Part shown: piece by piece, positions 1-40,345 of the stretch
Numbering within the stretch: the stretch's first letter is position 1
Layout of the letters: each line of letters begins with the position of its first letter
Source of the DNA: Dysgonamonadaceae bacterium
GTDB taxonomy: Bacteria > Bacteroidota > Bacteroidia > Bacteroidales > Azobacteroidaceae
Reading direction: 5' to 3'
DNA: 64,000 nt
Assembly: GCA_031272075.1 (NCBI GenBank)
Contig: JAISUK010000065.1
Location: 7,420 to 71,419, forward strand
Notes under the pieces: model-generated
The model's database searches: none
Told to the model about the DNA's origin: nothing
The model's input: only the letters and a program-made list of their open reading frames with translations
Program-made: the position numbers and the translations under genes

Positions 1-400
1 GCAACTGACCACCGGCCATGTCATTGTGATGGGAAGAAAAACCTACGATTCGCTGCCGAAAGGGGCATTGCCTCATCGCACCAATGTGGTGATCAGCCGC
101 AACAGCAACCTGCGACTGCCGCAGTGCACCGTCCTGAACTCCTTGCAAGCGGCGTTGACTGCATTTGCAGATGAACAGGAAATCTTTATCATCGGCGGAG
201 CAGAAATCTATCGACAATCATTTCCCCTTGCCGACAGGATCTACCTGACACGGGTGCATGCCGAATTCCCTGACGCAGATACGTTTTTCCCTCCAATCGA
301 TCCGGCGGAATGGCAATTGATCGCCGACGAAACACCCCTCGCCGACGAAACATCCCCCTACAACTACTCCTTTTACACCTTCAAACGCAAGCGCGTATGA
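1..400 (+). CDS. folA: Dihydrofolate reductase (5' end outside window)
   Basis: Frame open from base 2 (QLTTGHVIVMGRKTYDSLP...LPHRTNVVISR...IFIIGGAEIY...DADTFFP): classic DHFR motifs; stop TGA 398-400. Confidence 0.95.
   Translation, partial: QLTTGHVIVMGRKTYDSLPKGALPHRTNVVISRNSNLRLPQCTVLNSLQAALTAFADEQEIFIIGGAEIYRQSFPLADRIYLTRVHAEFPDADTFFPPIDPAEWQLIADETPLADETSPYNYSFYTFKRKRV
321..352 (+). repeat. Period-18 tandem duplication inside folA (ADETP/ADETS)
   Basis: TCGCCGACGAAACA at 321-334 and 339-352. Confidence 0.8.
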
Positions 401-491
401 AACGAGCATGATTTTCAAACATCCAAGTCGACGACAATAATGGCATTGCGATTTCCATACGACCTTTTAAAACAAATTATTGACGTATGAA
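397..491 (+). mobile_element. Start-codon element copy A (putative non-autonomous element)
   Basis: ATGAAACGAGCATG...CATCCAAGT...CATACGACC-T/A tract-TTATTGACGT-ATGAA; left ATG overlaps the folA stop; ATG-to-ATG 90 nt. Confidence 0.75.
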
Positions 492-1762: not shown

Positions 1763-1780
1763 AAATTATTGACGTATGAA
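1763..1780 (+). repeat. Solo right end of the start-codon element
   Basis: AAATTATTGACGTATGAA, matching the element 3' end; supplies the susC ATG at 1776. Confidence 0.7.
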
Positions 1781-4700
1781 AAAAAATCTATTTCTCCTCT
1801 TTCTCGTAACCTGTATACTGGGATTTACATTCCCCACATTGCTTGCCGCTCAATCACAGCAGGGTATTACGTTGGAAATGAGACAGGCAACGATAGAGCA
1901 GGTCGTTGTCAAGTTGAAATCGATGACCGATTATGGATTTACCTACCGTAGCAGCGACCTGCCAAAAGAAAAGCGCGATTTCGTATTCCGGAATCTGACG
2001 ATCGCACAGGTGATGGACAAACTGGTCGAAGAAACCACCTTGAGATGGACACGCGCAGGAGATGTGATCACGATCCTTGTCGGCGGAAAAACCAGTAGCG
2101 CTCTTCAGCAAAATCTCGGTAAAGTGACGGGACGAGTGACGGATGAAAACGGCGATCCGCTGATCGGCGTAACGGTCGTCGCGAAAGGCACGACGAAGGG
2201 GGTCGTCACCGATGCCGACGGTCGCTTTGAACTCGACGGACTGTCGGGCGGCAGCGTCCCGCTTCGCATCACTTATATCGGAAAAGAAGCGCAGGAGGTA
2301 ACGGTAAAAATCAATTCATACGTGAATATCCAATTGAAGGACGACGTGAGCCAGATCAACCAGGTGGTGGTGACGGGATATCAGACAATCTCCCGTGAAA
2401 AGTCTACAGGCGCTGTGACAACGGTCAATTCGGCAGAACTCGCAGAACGCTACACACCTAATATTGTAAACAATCTTGAGGGACGCGTTGCGGGATTGGT
2501 GACGTATGAAGGCAAAACAACAATACGGGGAACGGGAAGTCTTTATGCCACGACTTCGCCACTGCTGGTGGTGGATGGACTGCCTGTTGAGGAGAATTTG
2601 GAAGATATTAATCCTTATGACGTGGAAAGCATTACAGTGTTGAAAGATGCGGCTGCTACCGCCATTTACGGCGCACGCGCTTCCAATGGGATTATCGTCA
2701 TAAAGACAAAACGGGCTACTCAACGGGATCGCATTGATGTGGATGTGTCGGCTAATTTTACAATTTATCAGAAACGCGACTTGGATTATGCCCGCAACTT
2801 TTACATGACCCCGGAACAGCAGATCAAGACAGAGCAGGATTATTACCAATACTACTTTTTCGATAACGACGGCGAAGTGGTCGACCCGATAGGAACAACC
2901 GAAGCGGCTATTACTGCCACCGCGTATTCAGCCATGAGTCCGATATATTACGCTTATTATCAACTTGCCAAAGGAGACATCTCGCAAAGCGAACTGGATC
3001 GTCGGATCGCGGAATATAAGCAGAACAATTTCGCAAAAGAGTATGCCGACCACGCGCTACTCAACCGTTTCCTGCAACAATACAACATTTCTGCGCGTAC
3101 CCGCTCCGACAACTACCAGTCGAATTTGGTCATCAACTTCAAACGGGATAATATGGGCATCCGAAAGGCCGATAGCAATCAAATGACCATCTTTTACAAA
3201 GGAACTTACGACATAGCATCGTGGGTAACGGTCAATTTCAGTATCAACAGCATATTGGCTAAATCGCAAAGCAGCAACAGTGCGTATGCTACCGATCCAT
3301 TCAATGTTCCAGCTTACTACCGCCTGCTAAACGACGACGGGAGCTACAATTATTATTCAACTTCCATGTACAATATTTACAATACTTTGCCGGAAGAAAA
3401 TTCTGCCCTGCGTACCATGCGATTCAATCATCTGGATGAATTGTCCTATGACCAAACCAATACCGATCGTAGAAATACCCGCTACCATGCTGACCTGCTT
3501 TTCCGTATCCTCCCCGAACTGACCGTCAATACCCAGTTCATCTACGAAACCAACCGGCAAACGGAAACCTCGTATGCCGAAGCGGAGAGTTACATCATGC
3601 GTACAATGCGCAATGTTTATACCGTGCAGTCAGGAACTACCTACAGCTATATGATTCCGGAAAACGGCGGAAAATTGGCAACCGTGAATACAAAAGGTGA
3701 TCACTGGACAGGACGAGGACAGATCGACTACAACCGCAACTTTGGGAAACACGCCTTGAATTTATTGGCCGGGTTGGAGTTCCGTCAGACATTTACCAAC
3801 GGCACACGAGGATTGTTGCTGGGCTACGACGACCAACTGCAGACAGACGCCACCATTTCGGTGAACATACCTGCATTGGAAAATCTTGTTTACACTTCTT
3901 TTTTTATGCCCGGATATCCAGCGATGTCATTGATGTATAATCCATATATTTCTTCGGCCATAGGTACAGTGAAAGAACAACGTCACCGATACGGTTCGGG
4001 CTATGCCAATGCCACCTACACCTACGATAATCGCTACAACGTTTTCGGTTCATTCCGTAAGGATTATGCCGATGTCTACGGGTTGGATACCAGATTCCGA
4101 GGCAAGCCGTTGTGGTCGGTTGGCATCGGATGGAACCTGCACAACGAGGCTTTCCTGGCAGAGGCGTCAAACGTGAATTTTTTGAAAATGCGTGCCAGCT
4201 ACGGAGCAACCGGCAATATCTACCAAGGCGCCACCAGCCACATGACTGCTGCTTCCGGGTTTAATGCCTCTACAAAACTCCCGATGTCGTCGATTGAAAG
4301 CCCGGCAAATTCAGAGTTAAAATGGGAGGAGAATGTAACAACCGACATCGGTGTGGATTTCATGTTGTTCGACCGACTGAAAGGGTCATTAGACTGGTAT
4401 CATAAAAAGGGGAAGGATATTTTCTCCCGAAAAACGCTTGACCCCTCGAAAGGGTTTACCAGCATCGTGATGAACTTAGCCGGATTGAAAAACGACGGCA
4501 TAGAATGGACAATCTCCTACGACTGGTTCAAAGAAAAAAAGGAGGCTGGTTTTGCCTGGAACACAGCGCTTATAGGCTCTAATAACAAAAATAAAATAAC
4601 GGAAGTGGAATCGCAGGCTACGCGGGCAAGTGAGCTGATTTCTACGCCTTTTAAAGTAGGATATCCGGTAAGTGCGCTTTTTTCTTATCAGTTTGCCGGG

Positions 4701-5276
4701 ATCGACGATCAAGGGCAACCAACCTGGTATGCGGCAGACGGAACAATAGTGAAAGCCGCAACCGGCACCGGAGTCGATGCGATGGTTTATTCCGGTCAAT
4801 CAGATCCCATAACCGTGCTTGGGATGGAAAATCACTTAAGCTACAATGGTTTCAGCTTGAACGTACTGATGTGTTACTACGGAGGACACAAAATGCGGGT
4901 GCTTCAGGCCAATCCAACCTTTGGCGTGCCTTATGAGGCTATTCCCAGCTATTTTCTGAATGCCTGGACTCCCCAGAATACGGAAACCAACGTGCCGGGC
5001 ATTGGACGATATTCCGCTGTAACGCTGGGAGGAGAAACGACCTATACCGATATTTATGTACAACCGGCTGATTTTTTAAAGATACGAAACATCGTGTTGG
5101 GTTATGATTTACCCCGCACATTTTTTTCTAAAATGGGGATGCGTCGTGCAGTGTTGCGTTTCCAAATCGACAATCCAAAATACTTGTGGGTGAAAAACAA
5201 GGTAGGCATCGACCCGGAAACACGATCGCTGCGAACACCCTCCTCGTATATTATTGGGATGAATATTAACTTTTAA
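1776..5276 (+). CDS. SusC/RagA TonB-dependent transporter with N-terminal signalling extension
   Basis: Signal peptide, STN-like N-terminus, VVVTGYQ, SPLLVVDGLP, LKDAAATAIYGARASNGIIVI plug motif, C-terminal F. Confidence 0.95.
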   Translation: MKKNLFLLFLVTCILGFTFPTLLAAQSQQGITLEMRQATIEQVVVKLKSMTDYGFTYRSSDLPKEKRDFVFRNLTIAQVMDKLVEETTLRWTRAGDVITILVGGKTSSALQQNLGKVTGRVTDENGDPLIGVTVVAKGTTKGVVTDADGRFELDGLSGGSVPLRITYIGKEAQEVTVKINSYVNIQLKDDVSQINQVVVTGYQTISREKSTGAVTTVNSAELAERYTPNIVNNLEGRVAGLVTYEGKTTIRGTGSLYATTSPLLVVDGLPVEENLEDINPYDVESITVLKDAAATAIYGARASNGIIVIKTKRATQRDRIDVDVSANFTIYQKRDLDYARNFYMTPEQQIKTEQDYYQYYFFDNDGEVVDPIGTTEAAITATAYSAMSPIYYAYYQLAKGDISQSELDRRIAEYKQNNFAKEYADHALLNRFLQQYNISARTRSDNYQSNLVINFKRDNMGIRKADSNQMTIFYKGTYDIASWVTVNFSINSILAKSQSSNSAYATDPFNVPAYYRLLNDDGSYNYYSTSMYNIYNTLPEENSALRTMRFNHLDELSYDQTNTDRRNTRYHADLLFRILPELTVNTQFIYETNRQTETSYAEAESYIMRTMRNVYTVQSGTTYSYMIPENGGKLATVNTKGDHWTGRGQIDYNRNFGKHALNLLAGLEFRQTFTNGTRGLLLGYDDQLQTDATISVNIPALENLVYTSFFMPGYPAMSLMYNPYISSAIGTVKEQRHRYGSGYANATYTYDNRYNVFGSFRKDYADVYGLDTRFRGKPLWSVGIGWNLHNEAFLAEASNVNFLKMRASYGATGNIYQGATSHMTAASGFNASTKLPMSSIESPANSELKWEENVTTDIGVDFMLFDRLKGSLDWYHKKGKDIFSRKTLDPSKGFTSIVMNLAGLKNDGIEWTISYDWFKEKKEAGFAWNTALIGSNNKNKITEVESQATRASELISTPFKVGYPVSALFSYQFAGIDDQGQPTWYAADGTIVKAATGTGVDAMVYSGQSDPITVLGMENHLSYNGFSLNVLMCYYGGHKMRVLQANPTFGVPYEAIPSYFLNAWTPQNTETNVPGIGRYSAVTLGGETTYTDIYVQPADFLKIRNIVLGYDLPRTFFSKMGMRRAVLRFQIDNPKYLWVKNKVGIDPETRSLRTPSSYIIGMNINF

Positions 5277-6702: not shown

Positions 6703-7860
6703 ATGAAGATGAAAACAATTCTAAGCATGTTATGCAGCGTGGTGGTATTTTTGAGTGTATATGGCGAAGAAGTGGATGCTAACAAGTGTAAAATCAGGAT
6801 TACAGCTGAGAATTACCCGCTGGACACGGTCACCCTGCTATGGTCGGAGAACGGCGCTCGAAAAACTTTACCTGTAGCGCTTCCCGGCGGGAAAGGCGAG
6901 ATTGAGGTTGCTACAGCCGATTTAACCTCCCTAATAATATTGAATAGAGATATGAACTCGGTGATCAAAATAGGCGATAAGGGTGTCATTCCTTTGCCGC
7001 CGGTGGAATTTTTTGCAGAAAATGGCAAGTTGGTACAGATCAGTTTTGACAACCTAAAATGGCCAGAAATGGAGATTTCAGGCGGGACGGTAAACAATGA
7101 TTTAATGACATTGCGGAAAGTGACGGCGCCGTTGAAAGCCGAACAATACGCTTTGCGACGGGAGATGAATAACGAAGGCGCTGATCAGCAGTCGATCGAG
7201 AAACAAATCGAAGAAATCTCCGCCAAGATTGAATTTGCAGAAAAAGAATTTATGGCCTCGAACCCGGAGAGTTACATCTCTCTCACGTTGTTGAGAAGCA
7301 AACCTTTTATGCCCGTTGCTGAAGCGGAAAGCATATTCGCCAAGTTGCCTCCAGCTGTGCGTGACAGCGAGCTGGGGAAGCAGGTTGCGAGCGAGTTGGA
7401 AAAGAAAAAGACTTTGTCGCCCGGTCAACCGGCCCCTCTATTCTCAAAGAAGGATAAGGATGGAAATATTATTACTCTGGCTGATTTGAGAGGAAAATAT
7501 GTGTTGCTTGATTTTTGGGGAAGCTGGTGTGGCCCTTGCCGACAATCGCATCCTCACCTGATTGCTTTGCATCAGAAATACGCCCCAATGGGAATGGAAT
7601 TTATCAGTATTGCGTTTGAACACGTCGCTATTGATAAAGCGAGAGAATTATGGTTGAAAGCGGTGCAGGAGGACAAATTGACATGGACACAAATTTTGAA
7701 TAACGAAGATGAGAAATCGTGCAATGTGGTTCGATTATATGACATCAAAGCATTTCCAACAAAAATCCTCATTGATAGGGAAGGAAAAATCATCGCCGCC
7801 TATCTGGGTGATGATGGTCAGTTGGTAGACGAAAAATTGAAAGAGTTATTCCCTGAATAA
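6703..7860 (+). CDS. TlpA-like thioredoxin/disulfide reductase with N-terminal extension
   Basis: GKYVLLDFWGSWCGPCR CxxC motif, FPTKILIDREGKI; signal peptide. Confidence 0.9.
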   Translation: MKMKTILSMLCSVVVFLSVYGEEVDANKCKIRITAENYPLDTVTLLWSENGARKTLPVALPGGKGEIEVATADLTSLIILNRDMNSVIKIGDKGVIPLPPVEFFAENGKLVQISFDNLKWPEMEISGGTVNNDLMTLRKVTAPLKAEQYALRREMNNEGADQQSIEKQIEEISAKIEFAEKEFMASNPESYISLTLLRSKPFMPVAEAESIFAKLPPAVRDSELGKQVASELEKKKTLSPGQPAPLFSKKDKDGNIITLADLRGKYVLLDFWGSWCGPCRQSHPHLIALHQKYAPMGMEFISIAFEHVAIDKARELWLKAVQEDKLTWTQILNNEDEKSCNVVRLYDIKAFPTKILIDREGKIIAAYLGDDGQLVDEKLKELFPE

Positions 7861-9392: not shown

Positions 9393-10355
9393 ATGAACGA
9401 TCCCGAATTATTGGCTGCCATTGCCGCCTGTCTCAACGGAAGCGCCTTCGAATCGGAGACAAAAGCCGTGGAAAGCTGGTTGAACAAAGACCCACGTCAT
9501 CAGGCTATCTATACCGAATTGGCAAAACGAGATTACCAAACACAGATAGCCCAAGAGTCGGCCGAAGCCAAAGAACGTATTTTTTATCAAGTGGAGCATC
9601 GCATCCACCGACAGACACAACGCCGACGATTGCGCATCTGGCAATGCGTGGCGGCAGCTTCAATCGTTGCCCTGCTTGCCTTTGCAGGAGGGGAATGGCT
9701 CTCCCGTTCGACCACAAATAAACACCGGTTGCTTGAGGCGCAGAGTCCCAAAGGAGCACGGTCGCAGATCGTTCTCGGCGACGGCACGCGGGTCAGTCTC
9801 AATGCCGGCTCTACACTGCATTATCCTGTGTGCTTCGATAAAAAGACTCGCACAGTATCACTCACGGGCGAGGCCTATTTCGAAGTTGCCAAAGATGCAA
9901 ATCATCCATTTGTTGTCGAGGCAGGCGGGATAAGCGTCAATGTGTTGGGCACGCATTTCAATGTCAGATGTTTTGAGAACGACAATAGCGTGGTAACCAC
10001 GCTGCTCGAAGGTTCGGTAAAGGTAAACGATGTTGTCTTAAAGCCCAATCAACAACTGATATACGACAAAGCAACCCACACAGCCTCCCTGCGTGAAGTC
10101 GATGCAGAACAATATGTAATATGGAAAGACGGACAGTATTACTTCGACAGCGAACGATTTGCCAATATCATCAATGAACTGGAGCGCGGATTCGGGATTA
10201 AGATCACAATTCAGGCAGAAGAATTGAAGGATCAGACCTACTCAGGCATATTCACCGCAGAACAAACACTTTATCAGATACTTGAAGCCTTCAAGAAGCA
10301 CCGCAGTTTCAATTATCACAGACACGAAAACGAAATACGAATTTCCTCGCAATAA
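9393..10355 (+). CDS. FecR-family anti-sigma factor
   Basis: LGDGTRVSLNAGSTLHYP...GEAYFEVAKD...VLGTHFNV; adjacent to ECF. Confidence 0.94.
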   Translation: MNDPELLAAIAACLNGSAFESETKAVESWLNKDPRHQAIYTELAKRDYQTQIAQESAEAKERIFYQVEHRIHRQTQRRRLRIWQCVAAASIVALLAFAGGEWLSRSTTNKHRLLEAQSPKGARSQIVLGDGTRVSLNAGSTLHYPVCFDKKTRTVSLTGEAYFEVAKDANHPFVVEAGGISVNVLGTHFNVRCFENDNSVVTTLLEGSVKVNDVVLKPNQQLIYDKATHTASLREVDAEQYVIWKDGQYYFDSERFANIINELERGFGIKITIQAEELKDQTYSGIFTAEQTLYQILEAFKKHRSFNYHRHENEIRISSQ

Positions 10356-10510: not shown

Positions 10511-10606
10511 ATGAAACGAGCAGGATTTTACCATCATCCTAGTTGATGACAATCATGTCATGCGAGTTCCATACGACCCTTTAAAAACAAATTATTGACG
10601 TATGAA
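10511..10606 (+). mobile_element. Start-codon element copy B
   Basis: gtATGAAACGAGCAGG...CATACGACCCTTTAAAAACAAATTATTGACGT-ATGAA; ATG-to-ATG 91 nt; supplies the susC start at 10602. Confidence 0.75.
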
Positions 10607-13600
10607 ATTAAATAATTCAAGTGTATGTTTTTTGTCTAAAAAAACCATAAGAACCATGAAAGTGAGTTTAATCCTGTTGATATTATCGGCTTTCACTTTG
10701 GTATCCGCCAGCGTTCTTCCACAAAATGCAAGAGTAAGTATTGATGCCCGAAATATCAAGATTAAAGAAGTGCTGTATGAGATCAAGAAGCAAACCAACT
10801 ACTCCTTTCTCTATAGCAACAAGGAACTGAATGACAACAACCGTGTTACAGTCAAGGTCGATAATGAAACGATCGACAAGGTGCTCGACATAATTTTGCA
10901 AGGTCAATCGTTATCCTACGACGTTAACGATGACATGATTGTCATCTACAAGACGGGGCGGCAGAAGAACGCTCCAACCGGCGATGCCAAATCGCCTCTC
11001 TTTGTCAACCAACAAAAGATCACGGTGAACGGCCTCGTGCTCGATCTGACGCAGGGCGACCCCATTGTCGGCGCAAATATCACAGAGAAAGGCACGAAGA
11101 ATATCACTATTAGCGACATAAATGGTCGTTTTTCTTTAGACGTTTCATCGCCCGATGCTATTTTGCAAGTATCCTATATGGGATATCAGACGGAAGAAAT
11201 GACAGTAGGCAACCGCCGAATGTTCGAGATTGCCTTGCAGGAGGATATCAAAGCCTTGAGTGAGGTAGTGGTTGTGGGTTACGGCACCCAAAAACGACAG
11301 AATATAACTGGAGCTGTATCGTCGGTCAATTTTGCCAAAGAAGCCCAATCACGGCCTGTGACATCAACGCCGTTGGCATTAGTCGGTTTGGCGCCCGGCT
11401 TGGGAATACAACAACTTTCTGCCCAGCCAGGCATAGAGAGCATGACGATACGAATCCGCGGTAACGGGACGCTTAACAACAATAGCCCTTTGGTGATCGT
11501 CGATGGTTTTGAAGCGACCATCACCAATGTCAATGCGGATGATATTGAGAGTGTTTCCATCCTGAAAGATGCGGCGTCATGTGCCATCTATGGCAATAGG
11601 GGCGCCAACGGTGTCATCCTGATCACAACCAAATCCGGCAAATCAGGACACAGCTCGATCTCTTACAGCTCCATTTTTGCTGTCAACAAACCCCAACACA
11701 CGATTGACGTCATCTCCAATTATGCCGATTATATGGAAATCATGAATGAATCGGCAGAGAATATCGACATCGCACTGCCCTTCTCCCAGTCCATGATTGA
11801 CCTTTGGCGTGAGAAGGCGAAAGACCCCAATGGCATCGCCGAATCGGGCTATCCAAATTACGTGGCTTACCCCAATGTCGATTGGATGGACTGCATCTTT
11901 GAGAACAACCTCTACCAGAAGCACAACCTGTCGGCAGAAGGTCAGACAGGCAATGCAAAATACCTTATTTCTGCGTCCTACATGGACAATCCCGGCATTA
12001 TGATGAAATCGGGGTTTGATAAAATCTCGTTGCGTGCCAATATTTCATCGAAAATCAATCATTGGCTGGAAGTCGGCGCCAGAATATGGGAATACCGCTC
12101 TACGCGAGAACTCCAGGACTTGAGTGGGGCATTTAGCTATATGTCCCGCGCTCATCCGGGCATCTATCCCTACTACGACGGGAAATACGGCAGCTGGCAG
12201 GAGAACCCCGAACAGAGCGCAAACTCCCGTAACAACCTTTATTTTGTCGATCGTAGTGATGGACAGGATAAAATTCATTATACCAATAGCGCAGTGTTTG
12301 TCAACGTCAAACTTCCATACGCCCTGAAATATAATGTGTCTTTCAACTACATTCATCAGGATGAGGATTATAAATACTACACACGCACGTTGAATACCTT
12401 CTCTTTCCGTACCGGCGAGTGGTCATACCTTTATCAAGACTTGAGCAAATTGCTTATAAGAGGTCAATACCCCAGCACCTCTCACTGGACATTCCAAAAC
12501 ACGCTATCATGGAATGCCAATTTTGCTAAACACGAGATTTCTACATTGGCCGGCTTCGAGTCGATGTATCATAATACCAGTAGCGCCAATGTTGAAAAAA
12601 ACAGTTTCCTGAATGATCTGCTCACCGAACTCAGTACGGCAACCAACATGGTGTCTATCACCGGCACTCAAACAGATTACGCCACAGCATCGCTCTTCGG
12701 ACGGGCGCAATATGCCTACGACAGGCGCTATCTGTTTGAAGTAAACCTTCGCTATGACGGCTCTTCACGTTTTGCACGAAAAACACGTTGGGGTCTTTTC
12801 CCATCCGTATCTGCCGGATGGCGCATTTCTCAGGAAGCTTTCATGAATAATTCGGGCATCGACAACCTCAAATTACGCGCCTCGTACGGAAAATTGGGCA
12901 ATCACAGCATTGGCAATTACGATTATCAGGCAACTTACGTAACGGGGAGCTACTATTCGTTTGGCGGAAAGCAAGTATCGGGAATCACATCCTCACTTTC
13001 CAACGACTTGCTTGAATGGGAAACGACCACATCAACAGATATGGGGCTTGAAATAGGGATATTAAACAACCGGCTCACATTTGAAGCCGACTATTATCAC
13101 AAATTGACAGACGGCATCCTCTATCGCGCTCCTATTTTTGCAACGGTAGGAGTCAAGTCGGCTCCTTATCAGAATATTTGCGAAGTCACAAACAATGGCG
13201 TGGAACTCACAGTCGGATGGCGGGATAAAATCAACGATCTCAATTATGGCGTTTCAGTCAATTTCTCCAGAAATTACAACCAAGTTACCAAATACAACGG
13301 TCCCTTAAAAGCGGGCTGGGTAACAGATGAGAATGGTTTCCGATCCTACCAGACCAACATCGGCGATGTAAGCACCAAAGTAGATAATATGCGACGTACG
13401 ATGGAGGGCAAAATAATCAACGAGTTTTACCTGGCTGAACCCTATCGCGGTGACGGCACTTATTTCTTCGGCGACGGATCGGTCAATCCGTCCGGCGGAC
13501 CGCGCGACGGCATGATCCGCACCGAAGCCGATATGCAATGGTTGGAAGCGATGGTTGCGCAAGGCAATACCTTCCTGCCCAATAAGACGATCGGCAAAAA

Positions 13601-14213
13601 AGGAATCTGGTATGGCGACTTTATCTATGCCGATATAAATGGCGATGGCGTGTATGGCGACGAGAACGACTACAGGTTTCAGAATGTTTCCGTAACCCCG
13701 AAATTCTACTACGGTCTCCAATTCGACATGTCGTGGAAAGGCCTTGATTTTTCGATGTTATGGGCAGGCGCCGGCGGTTTTTCCCAATATTGGAGATTTG
13801 CCGGATTCAATGCCTATTCGACACGAGCCGATCTGACGCTTCCGAAAGGGATTGCTTACGATCACTATTTCTACGATCCGAACAATCCCGGTGATCCACG
13901 AACCAATTTGACTTCGGAGCATGGCCGCTTAACGATGAACTATGGTTCGGAACAGAATGGAGGTACAAATTATACGACGCTTTGGCTTTACAAAGCCGAT
14001 TACCTGAAACTAAAAAATCTGACTGTTGGGTATACCATTCCCGGTAAGTGGCTTCGGAAAGTCGGCATGCAGGATGCCCGCGTGTTCGTCAGCGGCGATA
14101 ACCTGCTGACAAAGACCGACTACCCCGGAATGGATCCGGAGATGTCCGGCACAGACCTTCAGTTCTATGCCAACCTCAAGCAATATTCAATAGGTCTCAG
14201 TGTTAAATTCTAA
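10602..14213 (+). CDS. SusC/RagA TonB-dependent transducer
   Basis: STN N-domain, EVVVVGYGTQK, LKDAASCAIYGNRGANGVILITTK, C-terminal GLSVKF. Confidence 0.96.
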   Translation: MKLNNSSVCFLSKKTIRTMKVSLILLILSAFTLVSASVLPQNARVSIDARNIKIKEVLYEIKKQTNYSFLYSNKELNDNNRVTVKVDNETIDKVLDIILQGQSLSYDVNDDMIVIYKTGRQKNAPTGDAKSPLFVNQQKITVNGLVLDLTQGDPIVGANITEKGTKNITISDINGRFSLDVSSPDAILQVSYMGYQTEEMTVGNRRMFEIALQEDIKALSEVVVVGYGTQKRQNITGAVSSVNFAKEAQSRPVTSTPLALVGLAPGLGIQQLSAQPGIESMTIRIRGNGTLNNNSPLVIVDGFEATITNVNADDIESVSILKDAASCAIYGNRGANGVILITTKSGKSGHSSISYSSIFAVNKPQHTIDVISNYADYMEIMNESAENIDIALPFSQSMIDLWREKAKDPNGIAESGYPNYVAYPNVDWMDCIFENNLYQKHNLSAEGQTGNAKYLISASYMDNPGIMMKSGFDKISLRANISSKINHWLEVGARIWEYRSTRELQDLSGAFSYMSRAHPGIYPYYDGKYGSWQENPEQSANSRNNLYFVDRSDGQDKIHYTNSAVFVNVKLPYALKYNVSFNYIHQDEDYKYYTRTLNTFSFRTGEWSYLYQDLSKLLIRGQYPSTSHWTFQNTLSWNANFAKHEISTLAGFESMYHNTSSANVEKNSFLNDLLTELSTATNMVSITGTQTDYATASLFGRAQYAYDRRYLFEVNLRYDGSSRFARKTRWGLFPSVSAGWRISQEAFMNNSGIDNLKLRASYGKLGNHSIGNYDYQATYVTGSYYSFGGKQVSGITSSLSNDLLEWETTTSTDMGLEIGILNNRLTFEADYYHKLTDGILYRAPIFATVGVKSAPYQNICEVTNNGVELTVGWRDKINDLNYGVSVNFSRNYNQVTKYNGPLKAGWVTDENGFRSYQTNIGDVSTKVDNMRRTMEGKIINEFYLAEPYRGDGTYFFGDGSVNPSGGPRDGMIRTEADMQWLEAMVAQGNTFLPNKTIGKKGIWYGDFIYADINGDGVYGDENDYRFQNVSVTPKFYYGLQFDMSWKGLDFSMLWAGAGGFSQYWRFAGFNAYSTRADLTLPKGIAYDHYFYDPNNPGDPRTNLTSEHGRLTMNYGSEQNGGTNYTTLWLYKADYLKLKNLTVGYTIPGKWLRKVGMQDARVFVSGDNLLTKTDYPGMDPEMSGTDLQFYANLKQYSIGLSVKF

Positions 14214-14226
14214 AAACAGTCATATT

Positions 14227-14319
14227 ATGAAACGAGCATGTTTTTCAAACATCCAAGTTGATGACAATAATGACATGCAAGTTTCATACGACCTTAAAAA
14301 AAAATTATTGACGTATGAA
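14227..14319 (+). mobile_element. Start-codon element copy C
   Basis: ATGAAACGAGCATG...GTTTCATACGACC...TTATTGACGT-ATGAA; 88 nt; between susC and susD. Confidence 0.75.
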
Positions 14320-16081
14320 TAACTTATATAAAATCTTCTTGTCGTTAGTCTTGATCTGTTCGATCGCCGGATGCAGTGATTTTTTAGACCGCAATCCTTA
14401 TGACGAGGTAAGTTCAGGAAATGTATTCAATTCCGCTTCTTTAGCGGAGACTGTCGTGATTAGCGCTTACAGTAATTTACGTTACGACTACACCGGTACC
14501 GGCCGAGACCTTCTCAATTGGGATGCTTTCGCGTCGGTGATAGATCCAACCGATGCCCATATTTTTCTGAACTACAACTACCTTACAGGCGCTATACAAT
14601 CTAATGATGCCTCGTTTCTAACGTATTGGAAACGCTTCTACGAAGGTGTGTCGCGTGCCAACGATGTGATAAACAACATCGGACGTGTTCCGGACATGAC
14701 CGACGCACTCAAATCACAACGGATTGCCGAATGTAAATTTATCAGGGCTTATCATTATTATCAACTGAACTGCCGGTGGCGCGGCGTTCCTGTCTATCTC
14801 GAAAATCTCGCTAATTCGGAATATACACGTCCCCGTTCTTCGGAAGAGGAAGTGTGGAATGTGATTGTCAAGGATTTGACGGACTGCATCGACTGTCCGG
14901 ATCTGCCCGGAAAATATGCATCCAACAGCAGCGACTATGGACGTATCACCAAAGGGGCAGCCTATACACTTCGGGGCAAAGTTTACCTGTGGCAACAGAA
15001 ATGGGCATTGGCTGAAGCGGACTTCCGGGAGGTTGGAAAATTGGGATATTCGCTTTATCCCGGCAACTATGCCGACCTGTTCAAACTTGCACAGGAAAAA
15101 TGCGATGAAATGATTTTCAGCATACAAATGGAAGAACTGTCCGGTCAAGGCAATGCGTTCAGCTATACGTATGGCAATTGGATGACGGCGGGCGGCGGCA
15201 ATTCGTCGTTCTTCATGAACACAAAATTTGTGGACACATACGAATGGGCGAATGGTAAACCATTTGACTGGAACGATGTTGTTGCCGGTTACAACAGTAT
15301 GACAACTCAAGCCCGTAGCGTCTATTTCCTGCGTGACAACATTACCTCGACCGAGCAGAGCACCATGCAAATCTATGGAGCCGACATGAGCAAATACCTT
15401 TCCACAGGCAACGAAGCGCGTATCAAAGCGGCATATACCGATCGCGATCCGCGGCTCTTAGCAACGGTGATTACTCCTTATTCCACCTATTCCGGCGGTT
15501 TTTCGGGCGCTGCAATCGATTATTCGCCCAGATGGCCGTTCCGCAGCAGTTCCGCTTCGCCGTATGATCTGCAAACCAAGTCAAACAGCCACTTCCTCTA
15601 TTCGATTCGGAAGTTTGTAGCGCCGGGACGCGAATTTCTCAACATCGCTTTCAATCCGATTGATGTCCCGGTATTCCGCTATGCTGATGTGTTGCTCTGC
15701 TTAGCGGAGGCGCTCAACGAGCAGGGAAAATATCAGGAAGCCATCACTTTTATAAACCAGGTGCGAAACCGAGCAAAAATAGCTCCCCTCAACGAAGCAG
15801 GAAATGCATTTGTCGCCGTAAACAACTCCGATCAGTTGCGCCCAAGGATACGCAACGAGCGTAAATGGGAACTCGCCGGCGAGTTGCAACTATACTATGA
15901 CGAGCTCCGCTGGGGAACATGGAAGGACGACAAATTCGCCGACGGCAATGGCTTGCTGGAGGCATGGGGCACACCTGTATATTCCTATGTCTGGGGAGGA
16001 TCGGCATACCTCAAATGGCCGATACCGGCATCTGAAAAAGAAATGAATACGAATCTTGAACAAAACGAAGGTTGGAATTGA
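14315..16081 (+). CDS. SusD/RagB lipoprotein
   Basis: IAGCSDFLDRNP lipobox, AECKFIRAYHYY, FRYADVLLCLAEA, ERKWELAGE, LEQNEGW. Confidence 0.95.
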   Translation: MNNLYKIFLSLVLICSIAGCSDFLDRNPYDEVSSGNVFNSASLAETVVISAYSNLRYDYTGTGRDLLNWDAFASVIDPTDAHIFLNYNYLTGAIQSNDASFLTYWKRFYEGVSRANDVINNIGRVPDMTDALKSQRIAECKFIRAYHYYQLNCRWRGVPVYLENLANSEYTRPRSSEEEVWNVIVKDLTDCIDCPDLPGKYASNSSDYGRITKGAAYTLRGKVYLWQQKWALAEADFREVGKLGYSLYPGNYADLFKLAQEKCDEMIFSIQMEELSGQGNAFSYTYGNWMTAGGGNSSFFMNTKFVDTYEWANGKPFDWNDVVAGYNSMTTQARSVYFLRDNITSTEQSTMQIYGADMSKYLSTGNEARIKAAYTDRDPRLLATVITPYSTYSGGFSGAAIDYSPRWPFRSSSASPYDLQTKSNSHFLYSIRKFVAPGREFLNIAFNPIDVPVFRYADVLLCLAEALNEQGKYQEAITFINQVRNRAKIAPLNEAGNAFVAVNNSDQLRPRIRNERKWELAGELQLYYDELRWGTWKDDKFADGNGLLEAWGTPVYSYVWGGSAYLKWPIPASEKEMNTNLEQNEGWN

Positions 16082-27809: not shown

Positions 27810-29447
27810 TTAATAACCGATGTTTTGTTTTAGATTGACGTTTCCTTCGAAAGCTTGCGACGGAATCGGAAACACATGATGTATATTCGGGTCGAAACTG
27901 CGTGCGCCATAGATTTCGGAAGTGCCGGTGATGGTCACAGGACCATTGACGACGGTGCCTGCGGTATAGGTCACGCCATGCGTAGGTTGGGCGTACAACC
28001 TTTGTGCGTCGCCCCAACGAACAACATCGATGTGTCGGCTGGGCAGGTATTCGGCTGCAAGTTCCACTCGGCGTTCGTTTTTCAGTTGTTCTTTCGTTGC
28101 GGCGCTGTTTTCCGGCAACCGGGCACGTTTGCGAATCCGATTGAGCAATTGCTTCGCTTCGCTGTCGCCTTCGCCGTTTTTCCAGATCAGCGCTTCGGCT
28201 TTCATCAGCAGCACGTCGGAAAAGCGGATAAGGCTTGTGCCGAGCGTGTTGCACATGTAATTACCGTTTGTATTGACATCTTTGCCGATGCAGTCAGCAG
28301 CTTCGTAAGGCGACATGAATTTACGGAATGTCATGCCAGAAGTGGACGAAATGCCCCAGGTGCGGGTCGAATTGCTGATCGCGTCGAATGTCATTCCGCC
28401 GAACAACACGTCGCGGCCTACAAATTGAATATGGTCGCCCGGTCGCAAGATCGTCGCATCGCGGCGGGTATCGTCCGCCTCAAAAGCATTCCACAGTTCC
28501 AACGTCGGCTGGTAGTATCCCCAGGTGTTGATGATGCTGTATCCGTCCTGGTTAAACCCGACGCCATGGTAAATAGGACCCTGGTTGGCATTGCCGAGCA
28601 TGGAAAAAATGTATTCGGAAGAAAAATTGTTTTCCTTACGCCACAATTTGGCAAACGGTACGGCGGAATTGTCGTCGAACAACTCCCGTCGATCGGCGCC
28701 TGTCAAAGCCATAATCTTATTGCAAAAGTCAATGACAGTATCGAAATATTTGGCGTCGTATTGAGCGGCGTACAGAGCGGCGCGTGCACCGAATGCCCAT
28801 GCTGCCGCCTTATGCGGGTAGCCGTACAGATTTTCCGGTAACTGTGAGAAGAGCGGCAGTTTTTCGCCCGCCGTATACATGTCAGCGATAATCTGGTCGT
28901 AGTTGGCCAATACCGAAGTCGGTCGCGGCACGTCCATATCTACCGGTTCGGTCGTTTCAAGGATAATCGGAATCCCGCCGTTCGGGCCGTTGTCGCCATA
29001 CCAGGGCGCTAACCACAGCATGGAAAAGCCGCGAAAGAAATAGGCGATGCCTACCGTCTGTTCGATGTAAGTCTTATCCAGTTCCATGGTGGGCACCAGT
29101 TTGATGATATTGTTTGCTTTGGTCACATTCTGATACATGTCGCGCCATACATAACGCTGGTCGTCGGAGTTGTTGGCCGGCATCAGGAAATTGCGAATCT
29201 GATCGGCCGAAGCCCTTGTGCGTCCGGGAACTGTATTGTCGCTACAACATTCCAGCCACATGTGACCACGTCCGCCACACCATTCCGTGGTAGTGAAATT
29301 GAAAAGGGCGGCGATCGCCAAATCCACATCTTCGACGGTTTGCCATCCGGTAGGCCGTCCGTAGTGGGGCGTATCCAAAAAATCGCTGCATCCTGCAATG
29401 ACCAGGATACTGACAAATAAACTGATTATTAATATTTTCGTTTTCAT
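27810..29447 (-). CDS. SusD/RagB lipoprotein
   Basis: IAGCSDFLD, AYFFRGFS, IRFSDVLLMKAEA, ERRVELAAE, LKQNIGY. Confidence 0.94.
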   Translation of the reverse strand: MKTKILIISLFVSILVIAGCSDFLDTPHYGRPTGWQTVEDVDLAIAALFNFTTTEWCGGRGHMWLECCSDNTVPGRTRASADQIRNFLMPANNSDDQRYVWRDMYQNVTKANNIIKLVPTMELDKTYIEQTVGIAYFFRGFSMLWLAPWYGDNGPNGGIPIILETTEPVDMDVPRPTSVLANYDQIIADMYTAGEKLPLFSQLPENLYGYPHKAAAWAFGARAALYAAQYDAKYFDTVIDFCNKIMALTGADRRELFDDNSAVPFAKLWRKENNFSSEYIFSMLGNANQGPIYHGVGFNQDGYSIINTWGYYQPTLELWNAFEADDTRRDATILRPGDHIQFVGRDVLFGGMTFDAISNSTRTWGISSTSGMTFRKFMSPYEAADCIGKDVNTNGNYMCNTLGTSLIRFSDVLLMKAEALIWKNGEGDSEAKQLLNRIRKRARLPENSAATKEQLKNERRVELAAEYLPSRHIDVVRWGDAQRLYAQPTHGVTYTAGTVVNGPVTITGTSEIYGARSFDPNIHHVFPIPSQAFEGNVNLKQNIGY

Positions 29448-35487: not shown

Positions 35488-35562
35488 GGTGGTTGTAGCT
35501 CAGCTGGTTAGAGCATCAGATTGTGGTTCTGAGGGTCGTGGGTTCGAATCCCATCATCCACC
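35488..35562 (+). tRNA. tRNA-His (GTG)
   Basis: G-1 plus cloverleaf: GCTC/GAGC D-stem, TCAGA-TTGTGGT-TCTGA anticodon arm, TTCGAAT T-loop, discriminator C; CCA not encoded. Confidence 0.95.
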
Positions 35563-35631: not shown

Positions 35632-36054
35632 TCAAGCAATAGAACGGGCAGTCTTGTGGAGCTGAGTGCTGATGTCGTCCAGGGCGCTTGAGAGTATTTC
35701 TAATTCTTTGTCGGTGAAAGCGACCGGGACGCCATTGACGTAATGCCCATTGACGCGCTGTGATAGCCAGGCGCGGCTTTTTTTGAAATAATTCTCAGCG
35801 ATGTAAGACATGGAAATAATATCCAGAATACTTCCAAGTTTCTGTTTGACATTAACATAGTTATAAACATTACTTGCACGGTCGATGGCTTGTTGCGCAT
35901 CTTCGACGAGCGCGTTTGATAACTCTTTCAATTCGTCATCGGTTTTACTGTCGATACTCGATTTAATTTTTTTGCGGAAATCTTCAATTTCAGCATCGGT
36001 ATTTAAGGACATAAACTCCGATTTTAATTTTTCCAATTCGTTTTTAATTTTCAT
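35632..36054 (-). CDS. DUF5053-like protein with C-terminal HTH-like motif
   Basis: ISMSYIAENYFKKSRAWLSQRVNGHYVNG..FT resembles the DUF5053 signature (recalled, not searched). Confidence 0.7.
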   Translation of the reverse strand: MKIKNELEKLKSEFMSLNTDAEIEDFRKKIKSSIDSKTDDELKELSNALVEDAQQAIDRASNVYNYVNVKQKLGSILDIISMSYIAENYFKKSRAWLSQRVNGHYVNGVPVAFTDKELEILSSALDDISTQLHKTARSIA

Positions 36055-36063
36055 ACGTCAATA
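36050..36063 (-). repeat. Solo right end of the start-codon element
   Basis: TATTGACGTATGAA on the minus strand supplying the ATG at 36054. Confidence 0.6.
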
Positions 36064-36110
36064 CTTTATTTAATATGATGACTACAAAGCTCCTCCGAAG
36101 AAGAGTTTTG

Positions 36111-38173: not shown

Positions 38174-40345
38174 TTATTCCGCGTTCCCTTCCATTTTTTC
38201 TTTCAAAGCAGCCAATTCTTCAATATCGCCGAGCGTGGTCTTTTCCATGACCGGCTGAATGATTTGGACTTCTTCTTCTTTTTTCTCTTTCCTGGATTTG
38301 CGGGAAGATTTCTTTTCGGTACCTTCTTTCTTTGCTTCAGCGCGTTGTTCGTCTTCAAAGATGCGGCTGTGTGAAAGAATGATCCGTTTGGAATCTTTGT
38401 TAAATTCAATCACCTTGAAGTCTAATTTTTCTTCCAATTGTGCGGAAGAACCATCTTCTTTCACCAAATGCTTGGGCGTTGAAAAACCTTCTACGCCGTA
38501 GGGCAATGAAATGACCGCCCCTTTGTCCAACAATTCGATGATGGTGCCTTCATGAACCGAACCGACAGTGAAAATCGTTTCAAACACATCCCAGGGATTT
38601 TCTTCCAACTGCTTGTGACCTAAGCTGAGACGTCGATTTTCCTTGTCTATCTCCAGTACCTGAACTTCAATGTCCGCACCGATGGAAGTAAATTCGCTCG
38701 GATGTTTGATTTTCTTTGTCCAGGACAGATCTGAGATGTGAATCAATCCTTCTACGCCTTCTTCAATTTCGACAAACACACCAAAATTGGTGAAATTACG
38801 TACTTTGGCCAAGTGCTTGGTGCCAACGGCATATTTATCTTCGACATTTTCCCATGGGTCGGGTTTCAATTGCTTGATTCCCAACGACATTTTTCGTTCG
38901 TCACGATCCAGGGTCAGAATGACGGCTTCTACTTCGTCACCCACTTTCATGAAATCCTGAGCGCTCTTGAGATGTTGTGTCCAACTCATTTCCGAGACAT
39001 GAATCAGTCCTTCCACGCCTTGCGATATTTCGATGAACGCGCCGTAATCGGCCATCACCACAACTTTGCCTGTGACTTTGTCGCCAACTTTGAGATCCAA
39101 ATCCAGGGCATCCCACGGGTGTGGCGTCAATTGTTTCAATCCCAGTGCAATTCGTTTCTTTTCGTCGTCGAAATCAAGGATAACAACATTGATTTTATCG
39201 TCTAATTGCACCACTTCTTCAGGATGCGATACCCGTCCCCAGGAAAGATCGGTGATATGAATCAATCCGTCTACGCCGCCCAGGTCGATAAATACCCCGT
39301 ATGAAGTAATATTTTTGACAATCCCTTCCAATACCTGGCCTTTTTCCAGTTTGGAGATAATATCTTTCTTTTGTTGCTCCAATTCGGCTTCAATAAGCGC
39401 TTTGTGAGAAACGACGACATTTTTAAATTCTTGGTTGATTTTGACAACCTTAAATTCCATCGTTTTATCTACAAATACATCATAATCCCGAATCGGCTTA
39501 ACATCGATCTGAGAACCGGGCAGAAAGGCTTCTATGCCAAACACGTCTACAATCATACCGCCTTTGGTGCGGCATTTAATGAGACCTTTGATGATTTCAT
39601 TATTTTCAAGTGCTTCATTGACACGATCCCACGAACGTGAGGCGCGCGCTTTTCTGTGAGAAAGGTTCAACTGTCCCTTTTTGTCCTCCTGGCTTTCGAC
39701 GTAGACTTCCACTTCGTCGCCTACTTTCAGGTCGGGATTGTAGCGAAATTCATTCATCGAAACGACGCCGTCGGATTTATAGCCGATATTGATGACAACT
39801 TCGCGTTTGTTTAATGACGTCACTTTGCCGATAACAACTTCGTGGTCATTGACTTTCTTGAGAGACTGATCGTACGTTTGTATCAGGTCTTCGCGACTGA
39901 CATTGCCATACGTCTCTCCCTTTTCATAAATATCCCAATCAAATTCGGCAGGCGAAGCTGACTTCGTTATTGTTTTCGCTTTTGTTTCAACAACTTCCGG
40001 TTCAACAGGGATTGCTTCTGCTTCCGGCTCCTCTACAGGGATGGGAGCTTCTTTTTCTTCGGCAACGACAGGCGCTTCCGGCGCTTCGGCCGTTACTTCT
40101 TCTTCCGAAACAACAGGCGTTTCCGTTTCTTCGGGCGTTTCAAGTGCTTCAGGTGTTACTTTTTCTTCCGCGGGCGCTTCAGCAAGCACTTCGGTAGCGG
40201 GATTTTCCTCGATTTTTTCGATTCTTTCTTGTTCTTCCGCGATAATGGGCGTTACCGCAGTTTCCAGTTCTACTGCCGACGTTTCGACAGTCGAAGCAGT
40301 GTCCGGACTTTCCACTACTTCTTCTTTCTTAAGTTCTTCACTCAT
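38174..40345 (-). CDS. rpsA: 30S ribosomal protein S1 with long acidic N-terminal extension
   Basis: Repeated S1 domains (YGVFIDLGGVDGLIHITDLSW, etc.); the core starts near EFDWD after ~130 Glu/Ala/Pro-rich residues. Confidence 0.97.
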   Translation of the reverse strand: MSEELKKEEVVESPDTASTVETSAVELETAVTPIIAEEQERIEKIEENPATEVLAEAPAEEKVTPEALETPEETETPVVSEEEVTAEAPEAPVVAEEKEAPIPVEEPEAEAIPVEPEVVETKAKTITKSASPAEFDWDIYEKGETYGNVSREDLIQTYDQSLKKVNDHEVVIGKVTSLNKREVVINIGYKSDGVVSMNEFRYNPDLKVGDEVEVYVESQEDKKGQLNLSHRKARASRSWDRVNEALENNEIIKGLIKCRTKGGMIVDVFGIEAFLPGSQIDVKPIRDYDVFVDKTMEFKVVKINQEFKNVVVSHKALIEAELEQQKKDIISKLEKGQVLEGIVKNITSYGVFIDLGGVDGLIHITDLSWGRVSHPEEVVQLDDKINVVILDFDDEKKRIALGLKQLTPHPWDALDLDLKVGDKVTGKVVVMADYGAFIEISQGVEGLIHVSEMSWTQHLKSAQDFMKVGDEVEAVILTLDRDERKMSLGIKQLKPDPWENVEDKYAVGTKHLAKVRNFTNFGVFVEIEEGVEGLIHISDLSWTKKIKHPSEFTSIGADIEVQVLEIDKENRRLSLGHKQLEENPWDVFETIFTVGSVHEGTIIELLDKGAVISLPYGVEGFSTPKHLVKEDGSSAQLEEKLDFKVIEFNKDSKRIILSHSRIFEDEQRAEAKKEGTEKKSSRKSRKEKKEEEVQIIQPVMEKTTLGDIEELAALKEKMEGNAE

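Follow-up and report, generated by a model that had tools for sequence, protein, structure and literature searches.

A ~95-nt ATGAA-bracketed repeat at gene starts of Bacteroidia, probably a small mobile DNA element that supplies start codons

Dispersed repeats of 120-150 bp that lie directly 5' of open reading frames (ORFs) and carry the ATG in use are known as REP2 in Neisseria and as IR-A/IR-B in Borrelia (Delihas, 2011, PMC3184786). According to the same source, the MIRUs of mycobacteria, 40-100 bp in length, are situated co-oriented in operons and overlap the stop or start codons of their neighbors with their ends (Supply et al., 1997, via PMC3184786), and filled and empty sites together with short direct repeats suggest that they arose by insertion. 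Here we describe a repeat of about 95 nt encountered in a stretch of 64,000 nt, called the window in what follows, from the genome of a Dysgonomonadaceae bacterium (assembly GCA_031272075.1, contig JAISUK010000065.1, positions 7,420 to 71,419). Each copy in the window is bracketed by the pentamer ATGAA, and with a probability that we put at roughly 0.8 the repeat is a gene-less, non-autonomous mobile DNA element inserting at ATGAA[A/T], for which the ATGAA brackets are the footprints.

Like REP2 and IR-A/IR-B, the repeat lacks terminal inverted repeats, contains internal stem-loops and ends with the ATG of the downstream ORF, a likeness that is functional only. REP2 possesses its own promoter and Shine-Dalgarno (SD) site and occurs in about 25 copies, whereas the repeat described here shares no sequence similarity with it, is distributed class-wide and forms helices supported by covariation; a duplicated start-codon bracket, a fixed hexamer and evidence from empty and filled sites, all found here, are not described for REP2. 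MIRUs differ in their small ORFs for translational coupling, their 4-nt direct repeats and their richness in G+C (PMC3184786). In the present repeat, the bracket is the start hexamer itself and frames are not conserved; a leader peptide read from the left ATG was considered and rejected, as this ATG opens MKRA* in 88 of 119 copies and frames of 11-31 codons elsewhere.

Direct reading of the window yields six copies, all of which start with ATGAAACGAGC and end with GACGTATGAA and share the layout ATGAA-ACGAGCATG-(variable centre)-CATGCGAGTTCCATACGACC-(A/T-rich spacer)-ATTATTGACGT-ATGAA. A 34-nt core pattern matches three times in the window, where no match is expected, and a covariance model retrieves exactly the six copies (E <= 6e-12). 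They are listed here with the parts of copy C, in which P1, P2 and P3 denote the helices discussed below.

397-491, plus strand: copy A; its left ATGA (397-400) overlaps the TGA stop (398-400) of an ECF-sigma gene
10511-10606, plus strand: copy B; ends on the susC start codon (susC 10602-14213)
14227-14319, plus strand: copy C; between the susC stop (14213) and susD (14315-16081)
14227-14231, plus strand: left ATGAA of copy C; 13 nt past the susC stop, opens a non-conserved 31-codon frame
14232-14314, plus strand: core of copy C; P1, a tentative P2, the 5' strand of P3, then an A-rich loop
14315-14319, plus strand: right ATGAA of copy C; serves susD as start codon, its ATG in the 3' strand of P3
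17691-17784, plus strand: copy D; 7 nt past the stop of an Mfa-like lipoprotein gene (17683), ends on the galM start (17780)
29534-29443, minus strand: minus-strand copy; 21 nt past a susC stop (29556), ends on a susD-like start (29447)
55263-55364, plus strand: copy F; at a Gfo/DUF1080 junction, an insertion, as the orthologous junctions are empty in 13 of 13 relatives

A preliminary description of this DNA, made from its letters alone, had noted ATGAA on both sides of every full copy and unrelated bases to the left of it, which is true for all six copies (gcgcgt, aaaggt, catatt, tacaaa and attcgt as claimed, and ttgacgt for copy F). It had also read the left ATG as lying 13, 7 and 21 nt behind the upstream stop in copy C, copy D and the minus-strand copy, and as overlapping the stop in copy A; these values agree with the ORF table, as do the 12, 24, 21, 18 and 16 nt that it gave for element-free junctions (5276/5289, 16081/16106, 24041/24063, 26935/26954 and 27793/27810). 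Removal of the core plus one ATGAA indeed restores the starts ATG AAT AAC for SusD and ATG AAA CGT for GalM, and the SusD frame obtained in this way begins with a typical lipoprotein signal peptide, MNNLYKIFLSLVLICSIAGCS. In copy A the right ATG opens only six codons (MKKERK*), with the anti-sigma gene beginning further on at 606, so that this copy represents an insertion at a stop-overlapping ATGAA that is not a gene start.

If the repeat has been inserted, orthologous junctions of relatives should include empty alleles with a single ATGAA, as the preliminary description had pointed out. The Gfo/DUF1080 gene pair is kept in 13 relatives of the family, with protein identities of 66-73% upstream and 65-84% downstream, and at none of the 13 junctions is the element present, each having a single ATGAAA. 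In the homologous susC/susD pairs nearest to those of the window, the stop is likewise followed by 10-12 nt and a single ATGAAA (TAA, 12 nt and ATGAAA in G075, with 59/57% identity; TAA, 10 nt and ATGAAA in G008), and five more distant pairs are element-free, too. No orthologue of the galM locus is present in the genus; identity of the best match is 43-44%. In the reverse comparison, for which an orthologue at least 55% identical was required in the genome of the window (G000), 14 element-bearing genes of same-genus relatives correspond to 12 empty and two filled starts in this genome, and five of the 12 empty starts are syntenic on both sides. The closest pair consists of a filled site in G002 (locus L022) and an empty one on contig C35 of G000, which are 86% identical. 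The filled site reads ...gtaaaaacgtaaaatttt-ATGAA-(79 nt)-ATGAA-tatattatc... and the empty site ...gtaaaaacgtgaaatt-ATGAG-tatattgtc..., homology of the flanks reaching as far as the left ATGAA and being picked up again directly after the right one. The repeat therefore displays an insertion polymorphism at the exact pentamer, neither all junctions being filled nor breakpoints lying away from ATGAA, and the reading of the ATGAA brackets as marks of insertion is supported. Relatives have the same repeat ends and species-typical centres. At one orthologous gene start with flanks about 75% identical, the copies of G000 (C28:3558-3652) and G007 (L047) even belong to different subfamilies, which points to independent colonisation or replacement.

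The genome to which the window belongs is a metagenome-assembled genome (MAG) of 3.0 Mb in 94 contigs, with 46.8% G+C and a completeness of 93%. It contains 129 copies of the repeat (nhmmer, E < 1e-10), 116 of them full length; the bracket counts that follow refer to the 119 copies with an intact 3' end. ATGAA is present on the left of 104 and on the right of 116 of these copies. In 97 cases an ORF of 60 or more codons begins on the same strand with the right ATG, and 75 copies have, at most 150 nt upstream, the end of a same-strand ORF of 100 or more codons, which places them inside operons. In three copies the TGA of the upstream gene lies in the left ATGA and the right ATG starts an ORF of 256-800 codons, so that both pentamers are in use, as a duplication predicts. 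Four tandem pairs (one on contig C14, two on C21 and one on C41) overlap by exactly one common ATGAA.

The target is longer than the pentamer. Of 116 copies, 90% have A directly behind the right ATGAA, 9% have T, 1% have C and 0% have G, whereas the next base of generic ORFs starting with ATGAA is A in 46, G in 22, T in 21 and C in 11%; three syntenic empty sites of this genome read ATGAAG. This bias and the ATGAAG sites indicate ATGAA[A/T] as the effective target. The Met-Lys/Met-Asn start put forward as target in the preliminary description can therefore be retained in the form of this hexamer, a gene start being usual rather than obligatory, as is evident from copy A and from about 15% of the copies in the genome. 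Signal-peptide-like N-termini are encoded by 70% of the element-bearing genes, by 73% of all ORFs with an ATGAAA start and by 38% of all long ORFs, so that the target sequence by itself accounts for the apparent link to exported proteins and polysaccharide utilization locus (PUL) proteins.

The same description had regarded ATGAA as a target-site duplication. In agreement with this, one pentamer is present per empty site, and a duplication is by sequence indistinguishable from an insertion beside ATGAA of an element that brings its own end. The first base of the left ATG differs in 10% of the copies, and seven copies with GTG, TTG or CTG followed by AA on the left and ATGAA on the right fit either an element-borne right end or the drift of a left ATG that is no longer under selection. 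An identical core on both sides and tandem arrays sharing one core would also be expected if a tyrosine-type recombinase, integron-like or other, recombined a circular or tandem element with its target using ATGAA(A) as crossover core, and the inverted cores AAC...GTT around a centre that varies in sequence and keeps its structure are loosely attC-like. We hold such site-specific recombination to be quite unlikely, as the R''/R' consensus of attC sites, RYYYAAC/GTTRRRY, is matched by ATGAAAC/GTTCCAT only in AAC/GTT, the genes concerned are syntenic chromosomal genes and not cassettes, no recombinase is linked to the repeat and a double-stranded circle of 95 bp is implausible.

Besides complete copies, the genome contains 84 solo tails GACGTATGAA, 72 of them at ORF starts, together with a graded series of forms shortened by internal deletion. 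What persists of a decaying copy is thus its tail and the start codon. Three solo tails are found in the window:

55250-55262, plus strand: solo right-end tail ATTATTGACGT; abuts copy F on the left and is taken for what is left of an older copy
1763-1780, plus strand: solo tail AAATTATTGACGT followed by ATGAA; at a susC start (1776-5276), read as a decayed copy
36050-36068, minus strand: solo tail GTATTGACGT followed by ATGAA; at the start of a 140-aa ORF (35632-36054)

As to the machinery that might move the repeat, it is orientated in a fixed manner, ATGAA[A/T] always being on the left and the strand constant relative to the target, and its ends ATGAAACGAGC and GACGTATGAA are not inverted copies of each other. 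With MITEs (miniature inverted-repeat transposable elements) such as Correia/NEMIS and ERIC it shares a non-autonomous nature, a high copy number, transcription together with its neighbors and short direct repeats at the flanks, including a direct target duplication, in that ATGAA is found on both sides of copies and once at empty sites. MITEs, in contrast, have terminal inverted repeats, occur in either orientation and use short, degenerate targets such as TA, and an autonomous insertion sequence (IS) with the same ends, as is usual for MITEs, was not encountered here: a pair of left and right ends enclosing a gene is found neither in G000 nor at about 180 further loci inspected.

The absence of terminal inverted repeats, orientation-specific insertion beside a fixed penta- or hexanucleotide, structure conserved on one strand and an internal complement that pairs with the right end (the covariation of P3, see below) are features expected for an IS200/IS605-type 'peel-and-paste' derivative. 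In such a case, a Y1 HUH transposase would insert a single strand 3' of ATGAA, guided by the internal TTCCAT/CATAYG, and the right ATGAA would be the element's own cleavage site, with no duplication involved; the seven NTGAA-left/ATGAA-right copies are as expected if the right pentamer is element-borne. Palindrome-associated transposable elements (PATEs) and REP/REPIN sequences resemble the repeat accordingly in being tiny and hairpin-bearing, in lacking terminal inverted repeats, in lying in one orientation beside a 4-5-nt motif and in possessing internal bases that pair with the cleavage site. An origin of this kind seems unlikely to us. The four carriers G000, G002, G004 and G005 (the last one 98% complete) have no match to Y1_Tnp (PF01797), ends of the repeat are absent from the flanks of twelve Y1 loci in relatives, and the paired, similar subterminal hairpins of IS608 are missing, the architecture of the ends being different from that of PATEs and REP sequences. 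At the junction, the base facing the left ATGAA is still mismatched (C or A), with no visible selection on left-end pairing. Furthermore, the 25 copies of G191, a complete genome of 3.38 Mb with 32% G+C, are 13 co-oriented and 12 counter-oriented with respect to the replichores defined by GC skew, which argues against an IS608-like lagging-strand mechanism; in the fragmented MAG studied here, local GC skew (45:31 for repeats against a 50:50 baseline) is uninformative. Over 41 genomes, none of Y1, reverse transcriptase (RT) and IS110 tracks the repeat, and mobilisation by Y1-HUH enzymes (IS200/IS605 or REP-associated tyrosine transposases), by an RT or by IS110 is in each case disfavoured. In one relative (locus L216, G003:C210, 183-271), an IS200-type Y1 transposase gene has a whole repeat at its start codon; as no second end lies downstream, this resembles a usual insertion more than an autonomous element.

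The sense strand of the repeat is structured. RNAalifold predicts two helices from 39 diverse copies, namely P1 (AAC-GA-GC(A).../...(U)GC-GA-GUU, with tandem G.A pairs) and P3 (CAUAYG/CRUAUG), the 3' strand of the latter containing the AUG of the gene. In 224 distinct copies, the Y:R pair of P3 is C-G 161, T-A 52, T.G 6 and C.A 3 times. An alignment of 105 copies, which was fitted to the model (a count based on MAFFT gives the same picture), contains 95.2% paired cells versus 87.8% in shuffles and has a covariation score of 0.219 versus 0.087, reached by none of 500 shuffles, while slid controls collapse. Variants of G191 extend this to P3 helices of the types CATCTG/CAGATG, CATGTG/CACATG and CATAAG/CTTATG and to P1 helices with CC/GG or with AT/AT replacing the tandem G.A. 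P1 and P3 are supported by covariation across the class. One G191 copy (L225, 245972-246066) has Watson-Crick A-T/T-A pairs (AACATCC...GGATGTT) where P1 otherwise shows the tandem G.A, from which it follows that the helix continues through the G.A pairs. A central hairpin P2 with a CAAAG loop is plausible, examples such as CATC/GATG, TTCAC/GTGAA and TCGC/GCGA covarying, and is not significant, as a crude scan found it no better than shuffles (mean stem 2.8 vs 3.1 bp). Likenesses to hammerhead ribozymes, T-loops, K-turns and attC sites were judged by eye and rejected, their defining positions not being conserved across subfamilies. For copy C, a fold of -19.4 kcal/mol (z = -3.2) is predicted, with the start codon (14315-17) in P3:

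14231-33 (AAC) / 14281-83 (GTT), inner stem 14236-42/14272-78, plus strand: P1; with an internal loop of G.A/A.A in place of the family's tandem G.A
14250-53/14260-63, plus strand: P2, tentative
14284-90 (TCATACG) / 14312-18 (CGTATGA), plus strand: P3

Class-wide covariation of P1 and P3, together with a start codon that always resides in P3, always on the sense strand and inside operons, invites the view that the repeat acts as a cis-regulatory leader RNA of the host (translational riboregulator, thermosensor or protein-binding site) with P3 gating the start; such a leader would be ancient, would have disappeared from some lineages through deletions between its ATGAA repeats and would owe its spread to duplication or recombination instead of transposition. 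Within the genome, stems are better kept than loops and G.T changes outnumber A.C changes (39 vs 24), and a hairpin with C at -3 would matter in Bacteroidetes, where initiation is tuned by mRNA structure and A-3 (PMC6847099). We nevertheless regard a host leader as very unlikely, given that orthologous sites are empty in 13 of 13 and 12 of 14 cases, that centres are species-specific and homogeneous and different subfamilies occupy one orthologous site, that tandem copies, copies on non-start ATGAA and frequent decay to solo tails occur, and that gene-class specificity does not go beyond ATGAAA. Moreover, 122 pair-breaking or wobble changes stand against three compensatory ones, the double changes, within the genome, a pattern of mostly decay with a hint of constraint, and no Rfam family matches.

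Judged by eye, the tail of the repeat does not fit the -7 box of Bacteroidetes, TAnnTTTG, and an SD site is not expected in this phylum. Empty sites have an open, A-rich native leader, mostly with A at -3, whereas in filled sites C is invariant at -3, the start codon is paired and additional AUGs lie upstream. Initiation in Flavobacterium johnsoniae profits from A-3 and weak structure, and AUGs are avoided near starts (PMC6847099). An optimised ready-made leader is not supported on these grounds, C-3 being invariant and the AUG paired where A-3 and open structure are favoured in Bacteroidetes (PMC6847099). More likely, the element is a tolerated burden, or a damper that can be co-opted. The position of the start codon in a weak hairpin with C at -3 would be a side effect or a co-opted one and should damp translation, not boost it.

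We propose that the element would integrate in one orientation at ATGAA[A/T], the hexamer for the Met-Lys/Met-Asn with which Bacteroidia genes, many coding for exported proteins, usually begin, after which one ATGAA would be present on each side. The left ATGAA would go on as before, be it as a dead start or as the ATGA in which the stop of the upstream gene overlaps a start. The right ATGAA, now behind the A/T-rich tail of the element, would become the start codon of the gene, which would survive the insertion, and for this reason copies would accumulate at gene starts in sense orientation. The fold would most likely be needed for recognition by the mobilising enzyme.

Several observations weigh against this proposal of a mobile element. 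The comparison of filled and empty sites is one between species, and the species itself is known from one sample; look-ups of exact proteins for strain-level empty sites returned only this same sample. Y1_Tnp, RVT_1 and IS110 DEDD domains have no match in this genome, which is 93% complete. By a crude count, ATGAA occurs at about 836 gene starts and at about 850 other intergenic positions, so that, according to this crude estimate, random insertion and survival would place about 50% of the copies at gene starts, and about 85% of the non-tandem copies are found there; the excess would call for some extra preference or benefit. Copies diverge by about 5% from the consensus, and all of them may be relics. 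Substitutions within the genome amount to 3.0% in stems versus 6.9-8.7% in loops, a conservation that hints at selection after insertion and at a host-level role of the RNA.

A bolder idea, tentative and on the whole doubtful, is that the repeat represents a new class of small elements, not moved by Y1-HUH, RT or IS110 enzymes, in which an internal anti-start sequence, GTTCCAUAYG, displayed by the conserved fold, would pair with the element's own rebuilt start and possibly with the ATGAAA target. The same structure would thereby both direct integration and gate translation, and a genome-wide translational regulon built by a transposon would have arisen in Bacteroidia. With about 130 full copies plus about 70 ORF-start solo tails among about 2,200 genes (crude calls), several percent of the genes carry the element.

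Beyond this genome, the covariance model finds matches in 60 of 301 Bacteroidia genomes and in 38 of 167 genera, finished genomes included. Exact-motif matches are distributed over Paludibacter, Dysgonomonadaceae, Tannerellaceae/Parabacteroides, Prolixibacteraceae, Geofilum, Azobacteroides, Proteiniphilum, Microbacter and an Ignavibacteriaceae MAG. In a finished Bacteroidia genome of 6.2 Mb (G311), most matches lie between 2.2 and 3.8 Mb, and variants of about 128 nt form tandem arrays of two or three units (C1, 2996851-2997230 and 835538-835745). In the 64-kb window, a tRNA gene is the sole match at gathering score to Rfam 15, and only chance-level matches (E <= 10), to two copies of different subfamilies, were otherwise obtained; literature searches with the end sequences and keywords found no description of the repeat, which apparently is undescribed so far.

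The repeat breaks and mis-joins contigs assembled from short reads. On a Logan contig of SRR14710912 (L002, 2886-3001), from another assembly of the same sample, an identical susD is preceded by genes for TauE, RpiB and transketolase and not by susC. The join passes through a hybrid copy of the repeat, which identifies it as an assembly chimera; a further contig (L001) ends inside the repeat. A feature separate from the element are short A/T-rich tandem repeats (GGAATTA, AGTTAGA and TTAAGAA types) in the spacers just 5' of several gene starts, at C49:~9940-9976, C55:~28950-28991 and C67:~7040-7081 of G000 and at L193, L194 and L199-L201 of relatives. Two further features of the window are the following:

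35489-35562, plus strand: tRNA gene
38720-39277, minus strand: three 39-nt direct repeats, about 260 nt apart, within a 723-aa ORF (38174-40345), probably an internal protein-domain repeat

If the proposal is true, about one in five Bacteroidia genomes has a repeat that enters genes without killing them by replacing their start codon. Spacers within operons would be inflated and ATGA stop/start overlaps uncoupled by it, and the start codons of many genes, the majority with signal-peptide-like N-termini, would be placed in one common hairpin. The annotation of leaders, of upstream ORFs and of 'conserved RNA motifs' can then be misled by the repeat. The finding would also point to an integration machinery with a specificity of 6 nt, and would offer a natural system in which SD-less ribosomes of Bacteroidia encounter structured initiation regions.

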